Positions 7,622 through 45,628 are shown, counted from the stretch's first letter. The stretch is 64,000 nucleotides of DNA from Candidatus Latescibacterota bacterium (GCA_965248435.1 OZ252100.1:4800001-4864000), one strand, 5' to 3'. The notes: a model not told the origin generated them from the sequence alone. Numbers and translations: made by a program.

Positions 7622-7845
7622 TCGGGTGGTCATCGTTCAAGGGAGGGTCGCTCGTGACACCAATTTTCCAGACGTCTGGAAAATTGGTCTAAATCACTGA
7701 CCCGCCTAGCTCAAGGCGACTATAAAGGGCTTTTAAGACCTGAAATATGAGTATTCGATGCGGACCGGGGCGAGACGCCCTAACTGCGGATTGGGGGCAG
7801 ATCCCGGTGATCTGGTAAGAAACCGTCGCTCGAAAAGCAAATTCC

Positions 7846-7872
7846 ACCGCAGAGGCGCAGAGGACGCAGAGA
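7846..7872. repeat. Short CGCAGAG repeat (caccgcagaggcgcagaggacgcagag)
   Basis: Three CGCAGAG copies at 8-9 nt spacing in an intergenic position. Confidence 0.5.
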
Positions 7873-7887
7873 AAAGAAAAATCGATG

Positions 7888-9345
7888 TTACATCGGGCCC
7901 ACCCGGTCCGGCCCAAGATCCAGCGCCCGCATCGCGGCGTCGAAGCTCCGGTGCAGGAGGTCCAGCTTCACGGCCTGATGATCGGAGTCGTCCCACAGGT
8001 TCTGGAACTCGCGAGGATCCTCCTGCATATCGTAGAGCTCCCCGAGACCGTGGCCATGGTAGACGACGAGCTTATATCGCCGGTCGCGGTACATGGTCGC
8101 GCGGGTTTCCTGCGGCTGGTCCAGGGCGTCGAAGTATTCGCATCGTACGGCATCCCGATGGTGATCCGCATCCGCATCACCAGTCAGGATCGGCAGGAGT
8201 GACCTTCCCTCCACGTAGTCGGGCACCTTCACATCAGCGAAATCCATGATCGTCGGCATAACATCCATAATCTCGACGAGCGCGTCGCTCACGAAGCCCT
8301 GCTGGATCCTTCCCGGACAGGAGAAGATGAGCGGAACCCGGACAAGGCCGTCGTAGAAGCGGCACCCCTTCTGGATCAGCCCGTGATCGCCGAGCAACTC
8401 CCCGTGATCGCTCATGAATATCACGATCGTGTTCTCGAGCTGCCCGGTCTCCTCCAGTGCCGACAACATGCACCCGAGCTGATCGTCGATCAGCTTGATC
8501 ATCGCATAATATGCCGCCTGGAGCGTCTTCGCGTCGCGATCGCCCGGTCCTGGATCTTCCACCAAGCCCTCCGCCGGTGAGCGCGGTACAATCGGGCTCT
8601 TGATATCGAGGTCGGACGGGTCGCGACCCTTCGACTGAAAGTCCGCGCCCACGAGTTTCTTCTGCTGTTCCAGGTCCGACGGGCGGAACAGCGGCCCCGG
8701 CATCTCCTTCGGGTCGAACTGATCGCGATAGGCCTTCGGCGGGTTGAAAGGCGGGTGCGGGTCGTAGATGTTGACGCTCGCGAGCCAAGGACCATCCCGC
8801 TTTTCTTTCGCAAACTCGATGGTCTTCTCCGCGCACCATGTCGTCTGATGGAGCTCCGCCGGCACGCCGTCGACACTCCTGGTCAGCTCGCCCAGCATTT
8901 CCCCCTTCTCGCGCACCCAGTCCGCGTAGTCGTGTCCCTTCTCCCAATCGTCCCGCGGGGCGTGGCTGTACTGCCAGTAGCGATAGCCGTCATCGATGCG
9001 CGGCTCGATCCGCCCCGAGGCGCTCGCGAGGTGAAGCTTTCCGATCAGCCCGCAGTCAAAGCCCGCGTCGGCCAGGTACTTCGTCACGAGCGGCGGTGCC
9101 TCGGACGGGAACAGCTCGTTCCCGTTCCGATTCATCCGGATCGTGCTCGCGTAAAGGCCTGTCAGAAAACTCGCGCGGCTGGGTGTGCAGATCGGGCTCT
9201 GACAGTAAGCGAAATCGAAGGCCACGCCCGTCTGCACGAGTCTGTCGATGTTCGGCGTCGAGACATACCGGTTCCCGAGCGCCGCGATCGTGTCGTATCG
9301 CTGTTGATCCGTACAGATCCACAAAATGTTCGGCCTGTCGTTCAA
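7888..9345 (-). CDS. Formylglycine-type sulfatase
   Basis: PNILWICTDQQR, CTPSRASFLTG (CxPxR), GKLH, DHGE. Confidence 0.93.
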   Translation of the reverse strand: MNDRPNILWICTDQQRYDTIAALGNRYVSTPNIDRLVQTGVAFDFAYCQSPICTPSRASFLTGLYASTIRMNRNGNELFPSEAPPLVTKYLADAGFDCGLIGKLHLASASGRIEPRIDDGYRYWQYSHAPRDDWEKGHDYADWVREKGEMLGELTRSVDGVPAELHQTTWCAEKTIEFAKEKRDGPWLASVNIYDPHPPFNPPKAYRDQFDPKEMPGPLFRPSDLEQQKKLVGADFQSKGRDPSDLDIKSPIVPRSPAEGLVEDPGPGDRDAKTLQAAYYAMIKLIDDQLGCMLSALEETGQLENTIVIFMSDHGELLGDHGLIQKGCRFYDGLVRVPLIFSCPGRIQQGFVSDALVEIMDVMPTIMDFADVKVPDYVEGRSLLPILTGDADADHHRDAVRCEYFDALDQPQETRATMYRDRRYKLVVYHGHGLGELYDMQEDPREFQNLWDDSDHQAVKLDLLHRSFDAAMRALDLGPDRVGPM

Positions 9346-9425
9346 CCGATATTTCCCTCACTTTCGAGGCCGGATTCTGTCGCCCCAAACCCCCGGCCTT
9401 CCAGGCGCAATATTTCGTGAAGAAG

Positions 9426-9558
9426 CAAAAAAAAGGCCATTACCAGAGACCCCCGAGGTAGTTTACGAGCGGGCTGAGGGTGCGTTCTGGACGCCTGCTC
9501 AGGGGCCGCTGAAGGTTGGCTACCTGCGGTGACTGGGTAATGGCCAAATTGGCTTGAA
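9426..9558 (-). ncRNA. Candidate ~130-nt rod-shaped small RNA or leader, family unknown
   Basis: TTGACG-N17-TATCTT promoter (9593-9565); long imperfect hairpin closed by GGCCATTACC/GGTAATGGCC; U tract. Confidence 0.5.
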
Positions 9559-36814: not shown

Positions 36815-38854
36815 ATGCAGACAGCCGTAGTCCAAAAACCGGACGTGAACGGGTCGAACCAATACTATCCCACGAGCCGCCCGCCCCTCGTTCCGAGTCC
36901 TTTCGCTAAACTTCCTCTTGGGAGCATACGCCCACGCGGGTGGCTCCGCCATCAGCTCGACCTGATGACAGACGGAATGGTAGGACGCATAGACGAGGTG
37001 AGTGAGTATATCCAGGAAGACAGCAGTTGGCTCACGCCGGAGAGCGACAAAGGAACCGAACAGGTACCCTACTGGCTTCGAGGATTCTACCCTCTGGCGG
37101 TACTAACGCACAACGAACGCCTTCAAGAAGAGTCTCATAAATGGATCGACGCCGCCTTTGCCAGCCAGCAGCAGAGCGGCTACTTCGGTCCCGCCAAGTT
37201 CACCTCCGCGTTGCGCGACGGTTTCGGAAGCAGTCTTACCATACAGGCATTGATGATGGATTCTGTTACCCAACATTGCGAATACACAAGAGATGATCGG
37301 GTCATTCCTTTCATGACGCGTTTTTTCGAATATTGTCGCGATCTACCTGATACGGAGTTTGTCCCTTATGGGCGGACTATTGACCAACGCCGCCCATGCG
37401 AAATGGTGGAGCACATTCACTGGCTTTACAACGCAACGGGCGATGGCTGGCTGCTCGATCTTGCCGCGCGTTTTTTCAGACGTTTCCCCCACACAACTGA
37501 TCCGTGGCCCGGCCGTGAAAGGATGCTCAGTCCGAACGTAAAAGAGCGGCCGATACGGTATCGCACCGATGAGTGGCTCGCCCACCACGTGGTGGACTTC
37601 ACGCACCGCTACCGGTACCCGGGCACATACTATGCCCAATCTCATGCCTCATGGCATCTCGCGGCCTCGGAATACTGGTACAATCAGCACTTGGGGACCT
37701 GGGGACAGCCAAGAGGCATTTTCGGAGCGGACGAAGTGATCCGTTCTACCTATACCGATCCTCGTCAGGGGTGCGAAACCTGCGCTCTCGTCGAGTTCAA
37801 CAAGGGATTCTTCATACTGGGGCGCATCACCGGCGATGCGAAGTACGCAGACCGATGCGAAGACATCACGTTCAACCATTTCCCCGTTTCGCACGCTCCG
37901 GATCTCAAAGGTCTCAAGTACCTGACGGCGTCGAACCAGCCTCAACTGGACGCTTCGAACAAACACGAATACGCCAACGTTGCAGCGAGCAAGCTTCATA
38001 CGCTGAGATACTCTCCCCATCAGATCTACCACTGCTGTCAGCACAATGCGGCGATGGGCTGGCCCTGGTACGCACAGAATCTGTGGCAGGCAACAGCAGA
38101 CAACGGTTTGGCGGCGTGGATGTACGCCGCTTCGGAGGTGACCGCAAGGGTGGGATCGCAAGGCGCTGCAGTCACCATTGAACAAGAGACAGAGTATCCT
38201 TTCAGAGGCTCGATTCGGATGAATCTTACGGCTTCTGAGCCAGTCGAGTTTCCGCTTTACCTTCGGGTACCGCAATGGTGCAACGGTTTCGTTGTTCTGG
38301 TGAACGGTAAGACGGTCGACATCGAGGCAGAGCCGCGAATGTATGTCCGAATGATGCGTGTCTGGGCGAGCGGAGATACGCTCGAAATCAAGATGGCGAT
38401 GGAGTTAGGGTTGACAGAATGGCCGAGGAACGGCAGCGTGACTGTAGACCGTGGGCCGCTGAGCTACTCGGTGAGGATCGAGGAAGAGTGGAGGCGATGC
38501 GGAGGTACGGATGAATGGCCTGAGTGGGAGGTGTTTCCTCGAGGCCCGTGGAACTACGGGCTGGTCATAGACCGTGAGAATCCGGCAGAATCCTTGGAGG
38601 TGACGCAGACAGAGTGCTTGTCCGACCAACCTTGGACGGTCGAGGCTTCGCCGGTTGAAATCAGAGCAAAGGCTAAGCGTATTCCTGACTGGAAGCTCGA
38701 GAACGAAACCGTTCAAGAGCTCAGACCGAGTCCGATTAAGTCGGATGAGCCTGAGGAGGTGATCAGGATGGTACCTCTGGGATGTGCCCGGCTGCGGATC
38801 TCTTGTCTTCCCACCGTTGGAAGCGGACTTGAGGCGAGAGAATGGGAAGTCTAG
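36815..38854 (+). CDS. GH127/GH146 beta-L-arabinofuranosidase-like protein
   Basis: LPLGSIRPRGWL, GCETC, CCQHN, TEYPF, LRVPQW, RGPL; AGGAG RBS. Confidence 0.85.
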   Translation: MQTAVVQKPDVNGSNQYYPTSRPPLVPSPFAKLPLGSIRPRGWLRHQLDLMTDGMVGRIDEVSEYIQEDSSWLTPESDKGTEQVPYWLRGFYPLAVLTHNERLQEESHKWIDAAFASQQQSGYFGPAKFTSALRDGFGSSLTIQALMMDSVTQHCEYTRDDRVIPFMTRFFEYCRDLPDTEFVPYGRTIDQRRPCEMVEHIHWLYNATGDGWLLDLAARFFRRFPHTTDPWPGRERMLSPNVKERPIRYRTDEWLAHHVVDFTHRYRYPGTYYAQSHASWHLAASEYWYNQHLGTWGQPRGIFGADEVIRSTYTDPRQGCETCALVEFNKGFFILGRITGDAKYADRCEDITFNHFPVSHAPDLKGLKYLTASNQPQLDASNKHEYANVAASKLHTLRYSPHQIYHCCQHNAAMGWPWYAQNLWQATADNGLAAWMYAASEVTARVGSQGAAVTIEQETEYPFRGSIRMNLTASEPVEFPLYLRVPQWCNGFVVLVNGKTVDIEAEPRMYVRMMRVWASGDTLEIKMAMELGLTEWPRNGSVTVDRGPLSYSVRIEEEWRRCGGTDEWPEWEVFPRGPWNYGLVIDRENPAESLEVTQTECLSDQPWTVEASPVEIRAKAKRIPDWKLENETVQELRPSPIKSDEPEEVIRMVPLGCARLRISCLPTVGSGLEAREWEV

Positions 38855-38910
38855 TCACGGATTCTCAATCGCGGGCTCGAGGCCGGCCCTAGACGCGGAT
38901 CTCGCTCACC

Positions 38911-39078
38911 CATGTGACCGAATGCCCGGTTTACGAGGGCAAGATGAAGATCATCGCCGCACTCACCGAGCCCCTGGCCATTCGGACCTACCTCGACGGG
39001 GTCGGTCTGGCCTCGTGTCCGCCACCCATCGCACCTCCACGCCCTCTCCCTCAGACTGAATTCGAATACGCGGGCTAA
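38911..39078 (+). pseudogene. C-terminal remnant of an IS91/ISCR-like transposase
   Basis: ECPVYEGKMKIIAALTEPLAIRTYLDGVGLASCPPPIAPPR resembles the CPxCGGxMRIIA..IL..LGL..PP..PAR tail. Confidence 0.7.
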
Positions 39079-39172
39079 ACCCCCGCCTCTACCTTCGACG
39101 CCTTGCGCGTGACCGGGGAGAAGTAATATGGAGTTTGATCAGGACTCAGCCCGTACCGGGTGTGCGATGAAC

Positions 39173-39304
39173 GGCTAACGTCCCCGCGGGCTGCGAACTG
39201 CCAAGCAACCGCCGTGACAGAGGCAAGGTTGCCGGAGGCCGGAGGGAGCCCTTCGGCAGGCTCAGGGTAAACTCCGCGACTGGAGCGCAAAGCCCGTGTT
39301 TTAG
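39173..39304 (-). other. attC-like site 3 (carries a REP-like insert)
   Basis: Minus strand CTAAAAC-a-CGGGCTttGCG...CGCAGCCCG-cggggac-GTTAGCC, starting at the methyltransferase stop codon. Confidence 0.65.
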
Positions 39305-40068
39305 CTTTGTGAGTTCTTCAGATATGTGACGGGACCTCCGAAGAGAAATATCCCTTTCGGAGTCTTGAAAAAAGGTTCCAGGTCGGAAAGCAGTAAAGCT
39401 CTAACATCATCGATCCTCTCGTTGCCCTGTTCCACAGCTGCAATACAGTTAGTCTGGGTCAATATATAATCCACGAGCGCATCTCGCGAGAAGTTGACTT
39501 CGTTCGTGTAGTGTTCTTTACCCAGAAAATCGAAACCTTCGCGGTTTGCATCTTCTTCTTCAAAAGGTTGACGATTCCGTGGAGGGGTCGGGTACCGCTT
39601 CAGATGCACTTCGTACACCCATTCTTCAAAGTCGGGGTTCTCTGCCATTTTCCCACTGAAACTGTTATTGTAGATCACGAGATACCCGTGGCTTTTCAAG
39701 AGCCTACGTGCCTCTGAAAGAAACCTGGAACGGTCAAGCCAATGGAAAGCAAGCGCAACAGTGATCATATCGAACGAACTATCAGGTAGCGGTATTTCCT
39801 CGGCAGGAGCAACGTAATAGGTAATGCGATCATCCTTTGTGGCAAGGTCTATCATCTCCGAGGATGAATCTATTCCTACGATATTTTTGACGATTTCCTT
39901 GAGAGCCACACAAGATCGTCCTGTCCCGCATGCCACGTCCAGGGCTACTTCCAAAGGATCTGTTAGATTCAGGTAACTCTTGATCATCCCGATAACCAGA
40001 GGATGAAAATATGGCCGAGCCGCCGCATATCTTTTGGCGGCAGTCATATGATCGAAATGACCTGCCAT
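39301..40068 (-). CDS. Class I SAM-dependent methyltransferase (cassette-like)
   Basis: ALDVACGTG, FDMITVALAFHW; more AT-rich than core genes. Confidence 0.88.
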   Translation of the reverse strand: MAGHFDHMTAAKRYAAARPYFHPLVIGMIKSYLNLTDPLEVALDVACGTGRSCVALKEIVKNIVGIDSSSEMIDLATKDDRITYYVAPAEEIPLPDSSFDMITVALAFHWLDRSRFLSEARRLLKSHGYLVIYNNSFSGKMAENPDFEEWVYEVHLKRYPTPPRNRQPFEEEDANREGFDFLGKEHYTNEVNFSRDALVDYILTQTNCIAAVEQGNERIDDVRALLLSDLEPFFKTPKGIFLFGGPVTYLKNSQS

Positions 40069-40086
40069 TGGTTATTCTCTTTCCCC

Positions 40087-40121
40087 TTCCGCAGCCGGTC
40101 GTGCTATGCGGCTGTGTTGTG
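40087..40121 (-). other. Degenerate/truncated attC-like site
   Basis: ACACAAC (complements the GTTGTG start of this cassette) then a CAGCCG..CGGCTG hairpin; no downstream GTT. Confidence 0.4.
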
Positions 40122-40161
40122 TTTTTGCTATCCACGGAACAATTGAGGCGGCCAATTCGTC

Positions 40162-40452
40162 TCAATTGAGAAGTGAGCTAACGTCAGCGATAGCTTCCGG
40201 CAATTTTCGAATCTGACTTTCCAGATCCCATCTGCGTATCAGGGAACCCTTGACTCTTCCAGGTTTTTCCACGTAGAAAGACAGCTTGTCAGCATAATAG
40301 ACTGCCCAGACTAGCCCGAATGTTTCCCTCTCAGCCTGGGAAAGTTGTCGCTCAGAAAGATACCCCTCGAAGAAAGTCTTCATCTCTTCTTTGTGAAGTG
40401 GTCTTCCGTTCCCCTTCGTATCCGTCGTACGTATACGAAGTGATGTCATCAC
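40162..40452 (-). pseudogene. Probable gene fragment (resembles a phosphotransferase C-terminus)
   Basis: FFEGYLSERQLSQAERE motif; no convincing start. Confidence 0.35.
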
Positions 40453-40531
40453 GAGACTTTCCTGTGGCCGTCGGTCCTTAAGGCGAACAATGGGCAGAAA
40501 TCCTATATCATCAGCATTGAGCCTTGAACGA

Positions 40532-40969
40532 TCAATCCTTGATGATTCCCTTATGAATCATTGGATTCCCGTCACTCCAAAGGACGCGCTGAACAATGGA
40601 CGCGATGCGCCAAGAGCCAGATATCTTCTTCACACCAAGAATATACAGGCAGTGGGTATTCAGCACTTCACCAGATGAGTCTCTTCGGTGTATAGCCATA
40701 GAGATTCGGGCGGTCCCAACTTCGCCATCAAGCTGTATTTCGTAGTTGCCTGCAAGATGATGAGTCTTTAGCTCCTGCAGTGCCTCACACCGGAGTTTAA
40801 CAAACTGCTCCGCAGTTAGGACTTCGGGGGGGGTTCCACGAAGATCCGAGTAGTCAGTATATATGGACTCGGATAGACAGGACTTCAGGTCATCCCAAGC
40901 CTTGATATCAAAGCAATTTGCGAATCGACTGATTAATCGATACACATGACTCTCATCTGATGAACTCAC
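40532..40969 (-). CDS. NTF2/SnoaL-like protein (cassette-like)
   Basis: D.KAWDDL, THHL, WRI motifs; follows attC-like site 2. Confidence 0.8.
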   Translation of the reverse strand: MSSSDESHVYRLISRFANCFDIKAWDDLKSCLSESIYTDYSDLRGTPPEVLTAEQFVKLRCEALQELKTHHLAGNYEIQLDGEVGTARISMAIHRRDSSGEVLNTHCLYILGVKKISGSWRIASIVQRVLWSDGNPMIHKGIIKD

Positions 40970-41029
40970 TCAAAGAACTCCTATCGAGACTGCGCCGCTT
41001 CTGTTTTGGGGGGGTTAGGCTGGCATTGC

Positions 41030-41115
41030 GCACAACGTTCTCGCCGTGCGCGAACTTGCCGCAGGCAAGTTAGGCGAAGGCCGGATGGGCTGAGCCGCGC
41101 ACGGTCGTGTTATAC
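41030..41115 (-). other. attC-like site 2
   Basis: Minus strand GTATAAC-acga-CCGTGCGCG...CGCGCACGG-cgagaac-GTTGTGC. Confidence 0.75.
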
Positions 41116-41149
41116 GCTTGCTGGTTCTGGTATCAATGCGGTGTCTGTA

Positions 41150-41857
41150 TCATTTTTCTTCAAGTATTTCAGCCTGAATTGTTTCCTCTTGAGCAGATCG
41201 CTTACCACGCGTGACTCTGTAAGCCTTCGCATTGAGTCGGGATGAGACGACTTTCTTGACCCTCTCTCCTTCGAAGTGAGCGGCTGCGCCGTCATCAAGT
41301 GCAATGCCTGGCAAAATCTTACCTTTCCAGACGAGTTGCTGATAGTAAGGGCGACGGTCGACCTCACTGTCGTAATGTGGGCAACTGCTCCCAGGAAGAA
41401 ATCCGAGACAGTCTAAAGGCAAAAGGGGTCCTTTAACAGAGTCCGTCACTCCCTGTTCGAACCAGCAAATCGCGCCCGCACTGATCCCCGCAAGGATGAC
41501 TCCACACTCCCAAGCTTCCCGAAGCATCTCATCCAATCCCCAGTCCCGCCAGACGGCAAGCATACTTCGAGTGTTCCCGCCTCCAACGTAGATAACGTCC
41601 TTTGCCAGCAGATAGGACTTCAGATCTGCCTCAGTCCTTCTGAAGAAGGTGAGATGTGAAGGCTGACAATCGAGTTGCGCGAAGGCAGTGTAGAATCTGG
41701 CAACATAGGTGTCAGCGTCCCCACTGGCGGTTGGGATGAAGCACACAGAGGGCTTCGTGGTGGAAACCTGGTTTAGAATGTACAAATCCAAAGCAGGTGT
41801 CTCCTCCATGGAAAAGCCCCCTCCGCCCAGTGCAATTATATGTTTCTGCTTACTCAT
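41150..41857 (-). CDS. pepE: Peptidase E (S51) family (cassette)
   Basis: FIPTASGD, YVGGGNT, GISAGA, CPHY. Confidence 0.9.
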   Translation of the reverse strand: MSKQKHIIALGGGGFSMEETPALDLYILNQVSTTKPSVCFIPTASGDADTYVARFYTAFAQLDCQPSHLTFFRRTEADLKSYLLAKDVIYVGGGNTRSMLAVWRDWGLDEMLREAWECGVILAGISAGAICWFEQGVTDSVKGPLLPLDCLGFLPGSSCPHYDSEVDRRPYYQQLVWKGKILPGIALDDGAAAHFEGERVKKVVSSRLNAKAYRVTRGKRSAQEETIQAEILEEK

Positions 41858-41926
41858 CGTTGTTTACTGACCCTCCAATAGGCCACCGACTATTTCATAG
41901 GAACGATTACCCCAGAACCAGCTTGC

Positions 41927-42001
41927 GTATAACGATTAAGCGTGTATCCGGAGTCGGAGAAGCGTGGACGGGAGCGGGATTCCGGATACACGGTGTTGAA
42001 C
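41927..42001 (-). other. attC-like site 1, overlapping the element's left end
   Basis: Minus strand GTTCAAC-ac-CGTGTATCCGGA...TCCGGATACACG-cttaatc-GTTATAC. Confidence 0.75.
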
Positions 42002-42206
42002 GAAGCCGCTTCACCTGCCTATGGGGATTGGATGAGTGATTCTTGTGTAAGGACCGCTGGGCTGGCCCAGTCATCGGACCGTATTTGAAGCTGTTTGGAG
42101 GGGCCGATGTCGCAGGATCCCATAGTCGCTCTACCAAGCTCAAAGAGTGGACAGACTACTGCCGTGTTGGGTGGTTGGGCTTGCGGGCAAGGGATGGTGT
42201 AGGAGC

Positions 42207-43391
42207 TCAAGCTACGGCAACATGTGCCGGAGGCGCTCGCAGAGGCGCGAGGGTTCCGACTGTGAGCATAGGGCCTCCGCACTGCGCACAGACCTGAAGA
42301 TCGATGCCTGTTACCCGGAACAGAAGGTCCTGCCAGGTCGCCTTTGTGGCTGCGGAAGCCGTCGTGCATACAGTGCCCAGGAGCCTACGGCATCGTGCGA
42401 GCTTTTTCCGGCGACCCCGATTGCTGAGCAGTCCGTAGTGCCGGATCTTCACGAAGCCATCCGGCAGGATGTGAAGCAGGAACCGCCGGATGAACTCGTA
42501 GGCATCGACGGTCATCAGCTTCCGTCGGTTGCCGGCCTGGCGGTCCCGGTAGTGGAATGAGACCCGGTCGCCCTCACAGGCGACCAGCCGGTGGTTGGAG
42601 ATGGCGATCCGGTGCGTGTATCGTCCCAGATAGGCCACGATGCGTTCTGGACCCGCAAAAGTCGGCTTGACGTAAACGGTCCATTCCCTCTGGTAAAGAC
42701 CCCGAAGCAGATCGAAGAACGCATCTTCCAGTGGAGCACTCAATCCCGGGAACGCCAGAAGGCCTTCCTGGTGCGCGTCCTTCAGGAACGCAAGGAACTT
42801 CCCCCGGAACAGTCGGGACAGAACTTTTACGGGTAGAAAGAAGCCCCGTCGCGCCGCCTTCCATTCCTGACCGTCGTGGGTCAGCCCACCTCCAGTTACG
42901 ATACAGTGCAGATGCGGGTGGTCGATGAGTGTCTGAGACCACGTATGAAGCACGGCGGTAAAGCCGATCTGCGCTCCAAGATACTTCCGTTCCCGCGCCA
43001 GCTCCAGAAGACTCTGCGATGCGGCTTTAAACACCAGGTTGTAGATCAGCTTCTGGTTCCGCAGAGCAAGCGGCCGCAGGGGCTCGGGCAACGTGAAGAC
43101 GACGTGGAAGTATGGGATCGGAAGGAGATCCTCTTTACGAGCGTCGATCCATCGTTCGGTCGTCAGGAACTGGCACTTCGTACAGTGCCGGTTGCGGCAG
43201 GAGTTGTAGGCGATCCGCTTCGTTCCGCACTGCCCGCACACTTCCACGTGTCCGCCCAGCGCAGCTGTTCGGCAGATCTGGATGGCTCGCATGGCCCGCT
43301 TCTGCCGAAGCGGCATGTGATCACCGTAGTGTGCTTGATACCCATCTCCGTGGACTCGGAAGATGTCGGCGACTTCGAGAGGCTGTGACAT
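42207..43391 (-). CDS. IS91-family (Y2/HUH) transposase
   Basis: Zn-binding CGQCG..YNSCRNRHCTKC; HPHLH (HUH); YLGRY (YxxxY); FIRRFLLHILP..KIRHYG. Confidence 0.93.
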   Translation of the reverse strand: MSQPLEVADIFRVHGDGYQAHYGDHMPLRQKRAMRAIQICRTAALGGHVEVCGQCGTKRIAYNSCRNRHCTKCQFLTTERWIDARKEDLLPIPYFHVVFTLPEPLRPLALRNQKLIYNLVFKAASQSLLELARERKYLGAQIGFTAVLHTWSQTLIDHPHLHCIVTGGGLTHDGQEWKAARRGFFLPVKVLSRLFRGKFLAFLKDAHQEGLLAFPGLSAPLEDAFFDLLRGLYQREWTVYVKPTFAGPERIVAYLGRYTHRIAISNHRLVACEGDRVSFHYRDRQAGNRRKLMTVDAYEFIRRFLLHILPDGFVKIRHYGLLSNRGRRKKLARCRRLLGTVCTTASAATKATWQDLLFRVTGIDLQVCAQCGGPMLTVGTLAPLRAPPAHVAVA

Positions 43392-43403
43392 GGCCAACCT
43401 CCG

Positions 43404-44255
43404 CTACAAGGTCGGCTTGTCTTCATCTCCCAAAAGGTCCAGGGGGCTTCTGATACGCGTGAGATCGCGAGTGGTGACGTGGAGGTAGACGGTGGTGGTT
43501 CGCAGGCTCGTGTGACCCAACAGTTGTTGGACGAAACGGACGTCCACTCCGTTGTCCAGAAGATGTGTGGCGAAGCTGTGACGCAGAGAATGGACACTCG
43601 CACGCTTTTGTATCTCGGCGCGTCGGCAGGCCTGCTCGAAGACTTTCTGGACACTGCGGGCGTGGAGCGGTGCATCCGGTCTTTCGCCAGGGAACAGCCA
43701 ATCGCGAGGCTGGTAGCTGCGCCAGTAGACGCGGAGTGCCTTTAACGCCTCCTGGGCCAGAAGCGTCTCTCGCTCTTTTTGGCCTTTGCCCCGCACACGG
43801 ATCAGCATCCGGTCACTGTCGATATCGGAAAGCTTTAGCCCGATGGCCTCACTCAGTCTGAGCCCGCCAGAGTAAATGACCATCAGCAGCGTACGGTGTT
43901 TCAGGTTGTTGGTCCTGTCGATCAGCCGCTGCACTTCCTCTGTGGAGAGTACCACCGGGAGCTTCTTTGCCTTCTTCGCACGAGGGATGCCCCACTCGAC
44001 CCAGTCACGCTTCAACGTCGTTTGGAACAGAAACTTCAGTCCGCTGTATACCTGGTTGACATAGCTTTGGGACAGCTTCCGCTCAGTGATCAGATAGTGC
44101 AGATAGGCGCGGATCTCTTCTTCGCTGAGCCGGTCGGGCGGTGTCTTGCAGTAACGACACAGCCCGGCCACTCCGCTCACGTACGCCTTCTGCGTATCCG
44201 GATCTAAACCTTTCAACTGCATGTCCCGGATCATTCGCTTCCGATGCTTGGTCAT
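43404..44255 (-). CDS. Tyrosine recombinase with N-terminal SAM-like domain (not IntI)
   Basis: GLRLSE, KGQKER, HSLRHSFATH, LGH, TTTVY; lacks the IntI-specific insertion before WLFP. Confidence 0.93.
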   Translation of the reverse strand: MTKHRKRMIRDMQLKGLDPDTQKAYVSGVAGLCRYCKTPPDRLSEEEIRAYLHYLITERKLSQSYVNQVYSGLKFLFQTTLKRDWVEWGIPRAKKAKKLPVVLSTEEVQRLIDRTNNLKHRTLLMVIYSGGLRLSEAIGLKLSDIDSDRMLIRVRGKGQKERETLLAQEALKALRVYWRSYQPRDWLFPGERPDAPLHARSVQKVFEQACRRAEIQKRASVHSLRHSFATHLLDNGVDVRFVQQLLGHTSLRTTTVYLHVTTRDLTRIRSPLDLLGDEDKPTL

Positions 44256-44560
44256 GGCTCTCTCCTTCTGCTGATGGTGGACGTTGTTAGCAGAAGGAGG
44301 ATGCGAAGCACAGAGCCATTTGCAAAGTGGCTCCGGACTTGCACGGTATCATATCCTGGTTGTCAAAGAGCAAAGGCCTTGCAGCAGGCCACCGCGAAGC
44401 GGTTTAGTTCAACTTCTGCATTCGCGCACCATGTGCGCAGATTCCACCTGTAGGGCAGATAGAATGCCCTGCCTGAATCCTGCTAATAATATAGAGAATG
44501 CGTATTGGTTCGTGAACCCAATTCATAATGCGTATGTGTTCTTCCAGATCCAAGAAGCAT

Positions 44561-44595
44561 AAAAAAAGAGGGCGCAACGTTTTCGTTGCGCCCTC
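44561..44595 (-). terminator. Intrinsic terminator of the ECF/Spy operon
   Basis: GAGGGCGCAACG-aaaa-CGTTGCGCCCTC followed by T7. Confidence 0.85.
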
Positions 44596-44624
44596 GCGTT
44601 TCAAAAGATCTGTGTCGCCAGTCG

Positions 44625-45605
44625 TTACTCGGTCGCGGCCCCTCCGTCGAAGCGTCTCTTGAAGTTCGCCTTCAACTCCTCAAGCAGGGCCTTCTGTTCC
44701 TCCGTGAGAAGGCCGCTGATCATTTCCTGGAACTCGTTGCGCAGCGCCTGGACCTGCTCACGCACGGTTCCACGCTCGGCTCCGGCGGCGCGCGCCTCTT
44801 CGATGAGCGCCTTCACCGCAGCCTGCCGATTTTCTTTCAACGCAGTCATCTGCTCCTGCTGATCGGCCGTGAGCCCGAGCTTTTCGGAGATGTCGCCCGC
44901 ACCCCGGGCCCGCTTACCTCTTTTTCCACGTGCGCGGTCATGACGGGCTGATTTCATTTCTTCGAACAGGGCCTTCTGCTCGTCATTCAAGATGCCCAGG
45001 ATCTCTTCGTGAAGCTGATCACCAAGGGCCTGCTTCTGCTCCCTGAAGCTCTCCCGATCGGAGCCTGCTGCCTTCGCCTCTTCGATCAGCGCCTTTATGG
45101 CAGCACCGTGCTCTTCTCGAATGGCCGTGATTGCCTCCTGCTGCTCGCCCGTGAGCCCAAGCCTTTCAGCGAAGTCGCCCGAGCCGCCGGCCCGTTTCCC
45201 TCGCCTCCCGTGTGGGCGGGACTGGCGAGCGGCTTTCAGCTCTTCGAACAGCGCCTTCTGCTCGTCGTTCAGGACAGAAGCGATCCGTTCGTGGAACTGT
45301 TCGCTTAGCGCCCGCTTCTGCTCCCGGAACGTCGCCCGATCGGAACCCGAAGCCTTCGCCTCTTCGATCAGGGCCTTGATGGCGGCCCTCTGCTCCTCCC
45401 GTATGGCGGTGATCGCTTCCTCCTGGTCCTGGGTCAAGCCCAGCTTCTCGGCCAGGCTGCCGCCCGCGGATGTGAAGGCTGCATCCGATTCGCCCGCCAG
45501 CTTTTGAGCCTGTGTGGCCAGGCTGGACGTTGCCGTCTCATTACCGCACCCATATACCCCGATGCCGATCATCAGCAGGGATAGGAAAATCGCTTTGGCT
45601 TTCAT
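44625..45605 (-). CDS. Lipoprotein with three tandem Spy/CpxP-like (LTxxQ) repeats
   Basis: Lipobox-like VYGC; three KLGLTxxQ...L(N/T)xEQKAL repeats. Confidence 0.8.
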   Translation of the reverse strand: MKAKAIFLSLLMIGIGVYGCGNETATSSLATQAQKLAGESDAAFTSAGGSLAEKLGLTQDQEEAITAIREEQRAAIKALIEEAKASGSDRATFREQKRALSEQFHERIASVLNDEQKALFEELKAARQSRPHGRRGKRAGGSGDFAERLGLTGEQQEAITAIREEHGAAIKALIEEAKAAGSDRESFREQKQALGDQLHEEILGILNDEQKALFEEMKSARHDRARGKRGKRARGAGDISEKLGLTADQQEQMTALKENRQAAVKALIEEARAAGAERGTVREQVQALRNEFQEMISGLLTEEQKALLEELKANFKRRFDGGAATE

Positions 45606-45628
45606 GTCGTTCCTCCTTCGCAAAAAGT

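Follow-up and report, generated by a model that had tools for sequence, protein, structure and literature searches.

An ISAzo26-like IS91-family element carrying a tyrosine recombinase at the head of an attC cassette array in Candidatus Latescibacterota

We report here the analysis of a 64,000-nt stretch of the genome of a Candidatus Latescibacterota bacterium (hereafter the window; the source genome, 5.67 Mb in 2 contigs and 97.5% complete, is labelled G000, and C1 is one of its contigs). On the minus strand, genes for a tyrosine recombinase (YR) and for a Y2 HUH transposase of the IS91 family precede a short array of gene cassettes with attC-type recombination sites. The best explanation, which we regard as probable, is that the two genes make up an ISAzo26-like IS91 insertion sequence (IS) that inserted at the GTT recombination point of a pre-existing array head, and that the arrays are older and were built by stand-alone YRs. 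The original prediction for this locus, made from its sequence, had described a self-contained platform in which the two enzymes capture genes; its observation is confirmed, and its platform interpretation is partly supported.

The insertion sequence and its insertion point

The element and the sequence that it abuts comprise the following features.

44414..44554, minus strand: ELEM150, an attI-like element of ~150 nt at the array head, ending ...gaatgcagaaG directly before the GTT that bears the IS
41931..44413, minus strand: ISAzo26-like IS91-family element of 2,483 bp (GTT at both junctions counted), delimited by blastn and end alignments; one of six genomic copies
44396..44413, minus strand: left (terIS-like) end, GTTGAACTAAACCGCTTC, an inverted repeat of the right subterminal box
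43404..44255, minus strand: YR gene, 283 aa, Pfam PF00589 and PF13495; integron-like/Xer-like type without the IntI insertion
42207..43397, minus strand: IS91-family Y2 HUH transposase gene, 396 aa, PF04986 (2.3e-61) and PF14319 (5.3e-32)
41931..42012, minus strand: right (oriIS-like) end, which the original prediction had called site 1; box GAAGCGGCTTCGTTCAAC, palindrome 41981-41993/41941-41952, spacer cttaatc and GTT

The transposase combines Y2_Tnp with Zn_Tnp_IS91, as in IS91, and scores 449.6 bits on NF033538 (cut-off 125); its H160-P-H162-L-H164 and Y256/Y260 columns are invariant in alignment A1. Only 6 nt separate the YR stop codon from the transposase start, and the two genes are co-oriented. 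By blastn and tblastn, six copies of the ~2.5-kb unit are present in G000, 97.5-99.9% identical in pairwise comparison and with both genes intact in every copy. Contig depth in run X1 is ~194-216 across the IS and 40-46 in its flanks.

Aligned in gene direction, the copies begin at the left with ...G|TTGAACTAAACCGCTTC... and end at the right with GAAGCGGCTTCGTTCAAC, the palindrome, cttaatc and G|TTA. The right end, identical in all six copies, reads GTTCAAC / 12-13-nt palindrome / cttaatc-GTT (repeat I15). Because the six-copy end alignment places the boundary beyond it, this site lies within the mobile unit and is not a cassette site. The left end begins GTTG, and the tetranucleotide adjacent to the right end is GTTA in 6/6 copies. 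The IS91 scheme, as set out in the relevant passages of PMC13181058, comprises a terIS cleaved at a tetranucleotide (GTTC, for example), an oriIS that contains subterminal palindromes, a target tetranucleotide beside the element without target duplication, and a functional single-stranded circle with joined ends, which the transposase alone inserts. The element fits this scheme: its terIS- and oriIS-like ends are distinct, a palindrome is subterminal, the target is not duplicated and the tetranucleotide beside the element is specific.

The left flanks of all six copies belong to one diverged family, ELEM150, and end ...gaatgcagaaG|TT. They are only 52-82% identical to each other, so that the six insertions are independent events; because the IS copies are so much more alike than their flanks, the IS is a recent arrival at older array heads. 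A profile of the six left flanks also finds IS-free ELEM150 copies, and occupied and empty copies diverge exactly at GTT. After the empty copy at C1:5004260 comes GTTAAGTGCAATGCCGGTGCC, a cassette start that is also found behind IS copy D, and the one at C1:4954224 continues GTTAACAG. G000 contains ~11 ELEM150 copies and 51,472 GTTA/GTTG sites, so that the location of 6/6 IS copies at the GTT of ELEM150 makes the tetranucleotide alone insufficient as a target. The first attC site of a co-oriented array follows within 0.6-1.5 kb downstream of five of the six copies, and no cassette lies between ELEM150 and any of the six.

Cassette arrays and the recombinases that head them

Downstream of the element, the window contains the following features.

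41150..41857, minus strand: pepE/peptidase S51 gene (Pfam), cassette 1
41030..41130, minus strand: attC site 2, TATAAC..ACCGTGCGCG..CGCGCACGG..GAAC-GTTGTGC, with R'' TATAAC, an L''/L' stem and R' GTTGTGC
40532..40969, minus strand: SnoaL-like gene (SnoaL_4, Pfam PF13577), cassette 2, with no intact attC after the gene
40162..40452, minus strand: 96-aa open reading frame (ORF), possibly a gene fragment, with no Pfam or NCBIfam match
40089..40110, minus strand: degenerate 5' attC half (repeat D9), 77% identical to the 5' half of site 2
39301..40068, minus strand: class I S-adenosylmethionine-dependent methyltransferase gene (Pfam PF08241 and related families), last cassette
39173..39304, minus strand: attC site 3, of a long subtype, AAAAC..CGGGCTTTGCG..CGCAGCCCG..GAC-GTTAGCC

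The minus-strand order of six ORFs (YR, Y2 transposase, pepE, SnoaL, 96-aa ORF, methyltransferase), the sites and the co-oriented, AT-rich cassettes had all been described in the original prediction and are borne out by ORFs, Pfam/NCBIfam matches and sequence, with a GC content of 47-49% in the cassette genes vs 58-63% in the IS and flanks. The stretch 39173-44554 is a small integron-type array of 3-4 cassettes (pepE, SnoaL, the fragment and the methyltransferase) without an integrase gene of its own. The pepE cassette spans TT at 41932 to G at 41036, and its start, TTATACGCAAGCTGGTTCTGG, recurs over 22 nt as a reverse complement where its own attC begins (inverted repeat I1).

Site 2 has dozens of relatives in G000 by blastn. 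Alignment of 24 such repeats gave the consensus yATAACACG - stem - variable loop - stem - CGAGAAC-GTTR, and an iterated nhmmer profile built from them finds 80 sites in the genome, which cluster in co-oriented arrays with a spacing of 0.6-3 kb.

946-993 kb, minus strand: attC array, 17 sites
1439-1446 kb, minus strand: attC array, 6 sites
2058-2089 kb, minus strand: attC array, 22 sites
3853-3872 kb, plus strand: attC array, 18 sites
4948-4952 kb, minus strand: attC array, 4 sites
5334-5340 kb, minus strand: attC array, 4 sites
5548-5552 kb, minus strand: attC array, 4 sites
single attC sites, including the window's: 5 sites

Site 2 itself matches the profile model with an E-value of 1.5e-18, site 3 is only partly detected (E 0.0027 in a 3.5-kb scan), and the match at the half-site 40089..40110 is not significant (E 46). 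Both ends of site 3 match other array sites by blastn, and its positions 27-60 match loci outside arrays. In a 21-site alignment, compensatory changes on both sides keep 10/16 predicted pairs paired. In 29/54 consecutive pairs vs 2.7% of 2000 random pairs, the 12 nt behind GTT are complementary at >=9/12 positions to those that precede the AAC of the next site; between the two ends of one and the same site, complementarity is no better than random (4.5 vs 4.35 of 12). Complementarity of GTT and AAC flanks across consecutive sites is a hallmark of cassettes made by G|TT crossover. Judged by these sequence patterns, which go beyond chance, sites 2 and 3 are genuine attC-type sites, with the imperfect R''/L''/L'/R' palindromes, single-gene cassettes and G|TT boundaries of integron attC sites. 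The proposal that all three hairpin sites are attC-like thus stands for sites 2 and 3 (80-site family, covariation, boundary complementarity) and falls for site 1, the oriIS-like end of the IS.

The loop of site 3 contains a 34-nt stretch (39246-39279) that recurs with 86-100% identity at eight places outside arrays (C1 2296953, 2509329, 3777882, 3780556, 3783266, 3920268, 3991640 and 5551263); it may be a small dispersed repeat that entered this attC site.

The window YR, as had been noted from the sequence, lacks the IntI-specific insertion: in an alignment that includes IntI1 and canonical IntIs from this phylum, it is without both IntI-specific segments (~41 residues). It scores 214.9 bits on NF040815 and 191.4 bits on TIGR02249, below the cut-off of 265. 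The original prediction had also found no intI in the window and had named a canonical intI elsewhere in the genome, if it and not the element's YR processes these sites, as evidence that would overturn it; no TIGR02249 match over the 265-bit cut-off was found in the window or in the whole G000 genome. The best TIGR02249 matches in G000 are the window YR and its five copies, each in two pieces that skip model positions 177-236, and these six IS-borne genes are the only intact integron-like recombinases of the genome. The array is thus not accompanied by an integrase with the additional domain of IntI. The window YR belongs to the 'integron-like' subgroup of tyrosine recombinases of Smyshlyaev, Barabas and Bateman (10.1101/542381), in which, according to the passages on this subgroup, YRs from IS91 and IS3 elements are the closest IntI homologues and lack its insertion.

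Among 168 genomes of the phylum searched with the YR, 24 in addition to G000 contain matches (40-56% identity), and only in genome G041 is there a transposase beside one. The stand-alone YRs reach 199-241 bits on TIGR02249, below the cut-off, and are without the IntI segments. At 12/13 stand-alone YR loci (~10-kb flanks) there are attC arrays of the G000 type and no adjoining transposase. The array is co-oriented downstream of the YR in G057, G058, G086, G076, G098, G101 and at locus G041d, and divergent from it, as in classical integrons, in G102, G105, G106, G107 and G040. ELEM150 is homologous to the stretch between the stand-alone YR stop and the first cassette: it follows directly after the stop codon in G086 and G076 (model match) and in G057 and G058 (by eye, ending ..cgtaGTTA). 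No IS-type end motifs flank the stand-alone YR genes examined.

Canonical IntIs over the cut-off are present in 17/168 genomes of the phylum. No canonical intI match was found in G000, G040, G057 or G058, nor in the other array-bearing genomes except G041 and G098, so that 10/12 genomes with array-heading stand-alone YRs are without one. The G000-type attC is absent at 12 canonical IntI loci (1.5-kb flanks), and at 6 canonical IntI loci and three G041 IS loci (~10-kb flanks for the former). For comparison, 10/27 loci of insertion-less YRs have G000-type attC matches within the same 1.5-kb flanks.

G000 retains a trace of such a head ~90 kb beyond the window, at C1:4954353-4954601(-). There, an 82-aa C-terminal piece of a stand-alone array-head YR, 71-75% identical to the co-oriented stand-alone YRs of G076 and G086, has His at the position of the catalytic Tyr; ELEM150 and an array in which the model detects four attC sites come directly after it. 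Several cassettes of this array presumably encode kinases of the aminoglycoside-phosphotransferase type. Taken together, the comparison suggests that the arrays were probably built by stand-alone recombinases of sister clades and not by the YR and HUH pair.

A maximum-likelihood tree of 84 YRs (quick search, SH-aLRT support only, two truncated rows dropped) places 13 canonical IntIs in one clade (SH-aLRT 99). Apart from these, a group with a support of 92 comprises three clades.

IS-borne YRs: 54 and G041d, SH-aLRT 99
divergent array-head YRs: 4, SH-aLRT 99
co-oriented or unplaced stand-alone YRs: 9, SH-aLRT 90

A recent local capture of an array integrase as the origin of the pair was considered and rejected, as the IS-borne YRs of G000, G041, ISAzo26 and the metagenomes described below form a single clade (99).

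These results bear on the platform of the original prediction, in which the HUH protein supplies single-stranded DNA and the YR excises, integrates and shuffles hairpin-flanked cassettes. In its favor, five of the six IS copies lie directly upstream of co-oriented attC arrays, the six IS-borne YRs are the only intact integron-like ones in a genome with 80 homogeneous attC sites, and their clade is sister to the array-head YRs. However, the arrays and heads are much older than the IS copies, which have no cassette between themselves and ELEM150 and one of which (copy B) is without an array. The same-type arrays of relatives have stand-alone YRs and no HUH gene, and the pair is kept in 74/74 metagenomic relatives with room for it and in a betaproteobacterial IS, where such arrays were undetected. 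We consider a self-contained platform improbable. Of the link proposed between pair and arrays, the adjacency holds (6/6 copies abut ELEM150 and five directly precede attC arrays), and the role of the pair as array builder does not: it is a recent six-copy IS in much more diverged flanks, and 12/13 array heads of relatives have stand-alone YRs.

In the surroundings of the array, gene 44625-45623(-) encodes a periplasmic LTXXQ-motif protein (Pfam PF07813) with three internal repeats of ~94 aa and a 282-nt direct repeat, and a pair of genes upstream of it is anti-sigma/sigma-E-like by eye. Beyond the last attC, a 54-aa ORF at 38914-39078(+) was considered as a candidate transposase C terminus; it has no Pfam match, a BLASTP comparison with the G041 transposase was not significant, and the candidate was dropped. 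An Rfam scan of 38500-45000 returned one chance-level lncRNA match and nothing else.

Relatives of the element and a proposed route of integration

The nearest named relative is a YR (48.9% identity) beside an 'IS91-like element ISAzo26 family transposase' in Aromatoleum aromaticum EbN1, on a plasmid with one ISAzo26 copy whose ends and target were read by motif only. Scanning metagenomes with an alignment of three transposases yielded 80 loci. In 74 of these, the YR lies directly upstream of tnpA and co-oriented with it; the other six have <220 nt upstream. This arrangement, which defines the ISAzo26-like subgroup, is therefore found here, in EbN1, in G041 and in 74/74 metagenomic loci with room, and the YR is conserved beside tnpA down to 40% identity. 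A transposase-only search of genome contigs gave one locus, L055, in a metagenome-assembled genome (MAG) of Clostridia, which carries the pair on a contig too short to define ends. Since it is shared with EbN1, the metagenomes and the Clostridia MAG, the pair represents a widespread conserved IS subfamily and not a feature of this array.

In G041, which belongs to the same family as G000, the element is 55%/61% identical and has the same end architecture; its palindrome differs in sequence and still pairs. One G041 copy splits an attC, its left flank GCCTAAC being complementary to GTT|AGGC, which is restored across the insertion. Two others lie ~190 nt downstream of a co-oriented canonical intI (464 bits; truncated, 298 bits), that is, in the position of a first cassette. 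In one G041 copy (L039, G041:C1:2154000-2168000), ~1.65 kb are inserted between the transposase gene and the right-end box (locus ~7830-9478).

The left-end architecture is shared by G041 and the metagenomic relatives, in which automatic end-calling worked for 16 loci only. In several subgroups (GTT, TTT, partly GAA and ATT), the right end is followed by the same triplet with which the left end begins; this failed in L084 and L091. In the subgroup of L061, L062, L064, L070 and L078, the end boxes are GAAGAAC/GTTCTTC and GAA replaces GTT after the right end, with L062 and L078 deviating at the left end. The junction triplet thus appears to co-vary with the end boxes.

The position of the G041 copies raises the possibility that the 2.5-kb unit is a passive gene cassette, with site 1 as a true attC, moved by a host integrase since lost and placed without any involvement of the transposase. 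Its boundaries TT...G with complementary R''/R' boxes resemble those of other cassettes, and its G041 counterparts are found in the position of a first cassette downstream of a canonical intI and within an attC. Nevertheless, there are six near-identical copies in G000 yet no intact stand-alone integrase in that genome, both genes are intact in all copies, and members of the IS subfamily from other phyla have kept the same end architecture. A passive cassette is, in our view, very improbable.

For the preferred reading, insertion of an IS91 element at an array head, we propose the following route. The HUH transposase would make an IS91-type single-stranded circle of the element. Its joined ends are predicted to fold into an attC-like hairpin with an outer stem of the two end boxes, an asymmetric internal loop and the inner palindrome, and this hairpin would integrate at the GTT of attI-like or attC sites. 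The predicted folds gave the following minimum free energies (MFE).

G000 IS circle junction, bottom strand: MFE -28.8 kcal/mol, z -7.7
G000 integrated right end: MFE -18.4 kcal/mol, z -3.1
G041 IS circle junction: MFE -25.1 kcal/mol, z -9.1
pepE cassette attC, circular form: MFE -47.2 kcal/mol, z -9.7

The fold of the IS circle junction has the same shape as that of the circular attC of the pepE cassette. We lean slightly towards integration by the element's own integron-like YR, as in attC x attI recombination, over action of the transposase alone on GTTN beside a hairpin, because the tetranucleotide is insufficient as a target, the YR gene is conserved and packed against tnpA, and its nearest non-IS kin are found at attI-like/attC sites. 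To our knowledge, and as far as our literature search shows, no role has been assigned to the YR in those IS91-family elements that carry one.

The alternative is plain IS91 rolling-circle transposition, in which the HUH protein alone recognizes a hairpin with GTTN behind it, which mimics its own oriIS junction, and the YR does something else, for instance resolve circles, regulate or control copy number. In end architecture and adjacent tetranucleotide the element matches the published scheme, in which the transposase alone inserts circles (PMC13181058, in the passages mentioned above). ELEM150, attC and the right end of the IS all consist of a stem arm, 7-10 nt and GTT, and a Clostridia MAG and a betaproteobacterium have members of the family with no integron context seen there. 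What this alternative does not account for is the 6/6 occupation of ~11 ELEM150 copies among 51,472 sites, which a tetranucleotide cannot produce, the tight packing of the YR gene with tnpA and its conservation to 40% identity, and the YR's nearest non-IS relatives, which head attC arrays. We regard it as possible, and doubtful.

Several observations weigh against the insertion of an IS91 element at an attI-like head by way of an attC-like intermediate. GTT at both junctions fits IS91-type insertion 5' of GTTN and G|TT crossover equally. ELEM150 occupies the attI position and ends at GTT, but no integrase adjoins it in the window, and the designation attI-like is derived from that position and the terminal GTT. 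Downstream of IS copy B, which does have ELEM150, there is no attC within 8 kb. Copies of ELEM150 are also found after an unrelated phage-type integrase and after a gene that we take to be DUF1016-like. End boxes and junction triplets vary among the metagenomic subgroups, with no single rule. The attC and ELEM150 models were both trained on G000 itself, and they find nothing in the 80 metagenomic loci, a weak negative because most flanks are <1.5 kb and from other taxa. The association with arrays that the original prediction expected around homologous pairs was seen for five of the six G000 copies and, within these short flanks, at 0/80 metagenomic loci for this attC type. The sampling of the tree is biased, with stand-alone YRs from this phylum only and IS-borne YRs collected via the transposase. 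Finally, four sequencing runs, represented by assembled contigs only, show neither a circle junction nor an empty-site joint; there are only contig breaks at the IS ends, plus other flanks in a related strain. Missing joints in assembled contigs are no evidence against excision.

The phage-type integrase (362 aa, beside cysS) and the ELEM150 that follows it are located at C1:4624078-4625492. The module is duplicated 25 kb away at C1:4649797-4651300, with the integrase broken into two ORFs and with IS copy E at the GTT of ELEM150.

Relation to known systems

In our literature search, no paper located IS91-associated recombinases or elements at attC or attI sites, none dealt with ISAzo26 itself and none described integrases at array heads that lack the IntI insertion; Figures S1 and S5 in the supplement of Cury et al. 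2016, on such recombinases near attC, may bear on the last point. The targeting of attI/attC and the mimicry of attC by this IS subfamily, as well as attC arrays headed by YRs without the IntI domain, thus looked unreported.

A joint reading of the results would be that the phylum runs an integron-like system without the IntI domain, composed of a stand-alone Xer-like YR, an ELEM150-type attI and long attC arrays, and that ISAzo26-like elements use a sister YR to integrate an attC-mimic circle into attI/attC cores. We put this forward tentatively, as less likely than its alternatives together. Stand-alone YR, ELEM150 and arrays co-occur also in complete genomes without a canonical intI. If both parts are true, they connect rolling-circle insertion sequences to integrons in mechanism and in evolution. 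With the stand-alone integrase of G000 dead, its six IS-borne YRs may then still recombine its ~80 cassettes. The IS-borne YR gains a concrete candidate target, the GTT of attI-like/attC sites, and a candidate substrate, the attC-like fold of the joined ends. The additional domain of IntI is treated as the mark of attC-acting recombinases; if insertion-less YRs are active, domain-based tools label real platforms as attC clusters that have no integron-integrase (CALIN). Furthermore, an IS between the array head and the first cassette can sever cassettes from upstream promoters, and IS copies at array heads can seed inter-array rearrangements.

The array of the window, with sites 2 and 3 plus a half-site and no intI nearby, has the composition of a CALIN (at least two attC sites without a nearby intI; Cury et al. 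2016). In the relevant passages of that paper (PMC4889954), CALIN share with the present array short co-oriented cassettes that each end in attC, G|TT boundaries and the lack of a nearby intI. By contrast, canonical IntI is here missing genome-wide, and the same attC type is headed in relatives by insertion-less YRs. The same passages dismiss recombinases without the IntI domain near attC as 'not IntI' (PMC4889954), a statement that the array-heading stand-alone YR loci do not fit. Our alignment and tree agree with the 'integron-like' subgroup as the closest kin of IntI without its insertion (10.1101/542381). Unlike here, the passages on that subgroup draw no link to attC/attI sites or to stand-alone array-head genes.

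With IS91 and ISAzo26-like elements, the element shares a Y2 HUH transposase with a zinc-binding N-terminal domain, distinct ends, a right-end palindrome, an adjacent tetranucleotide, the lack of target duplication and a YR packed upstream. It differs in its insertion at the GTT cores of attI-like/attC sites and in its joined ends, which are predicted to fold like attC. In phages of the CTX-phi type, a hairpin in the single-stranded phage circle is the substrate of host XerCD and is integrated at dif. The likeness would lie in a folded hairpin of a single-stranded DNA circle as the substrate of an Xer-like YR at a specific site; here the YR would be element-borne and the circle made by a HUH transposase.

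Other mobile elements are known from cassette recombination sites: IS1111-attC elements have a DEDD transposase with a guide RNA, and the group IIC-attC intron is a retro-element. Both groups resemble the present element in inserting specifically into such sites (on such elements, see PMC3001079). The element described here differs from them in combining a HUH transposase with a YR, in its preference for the attI-like array head and in being itself cassette-like.

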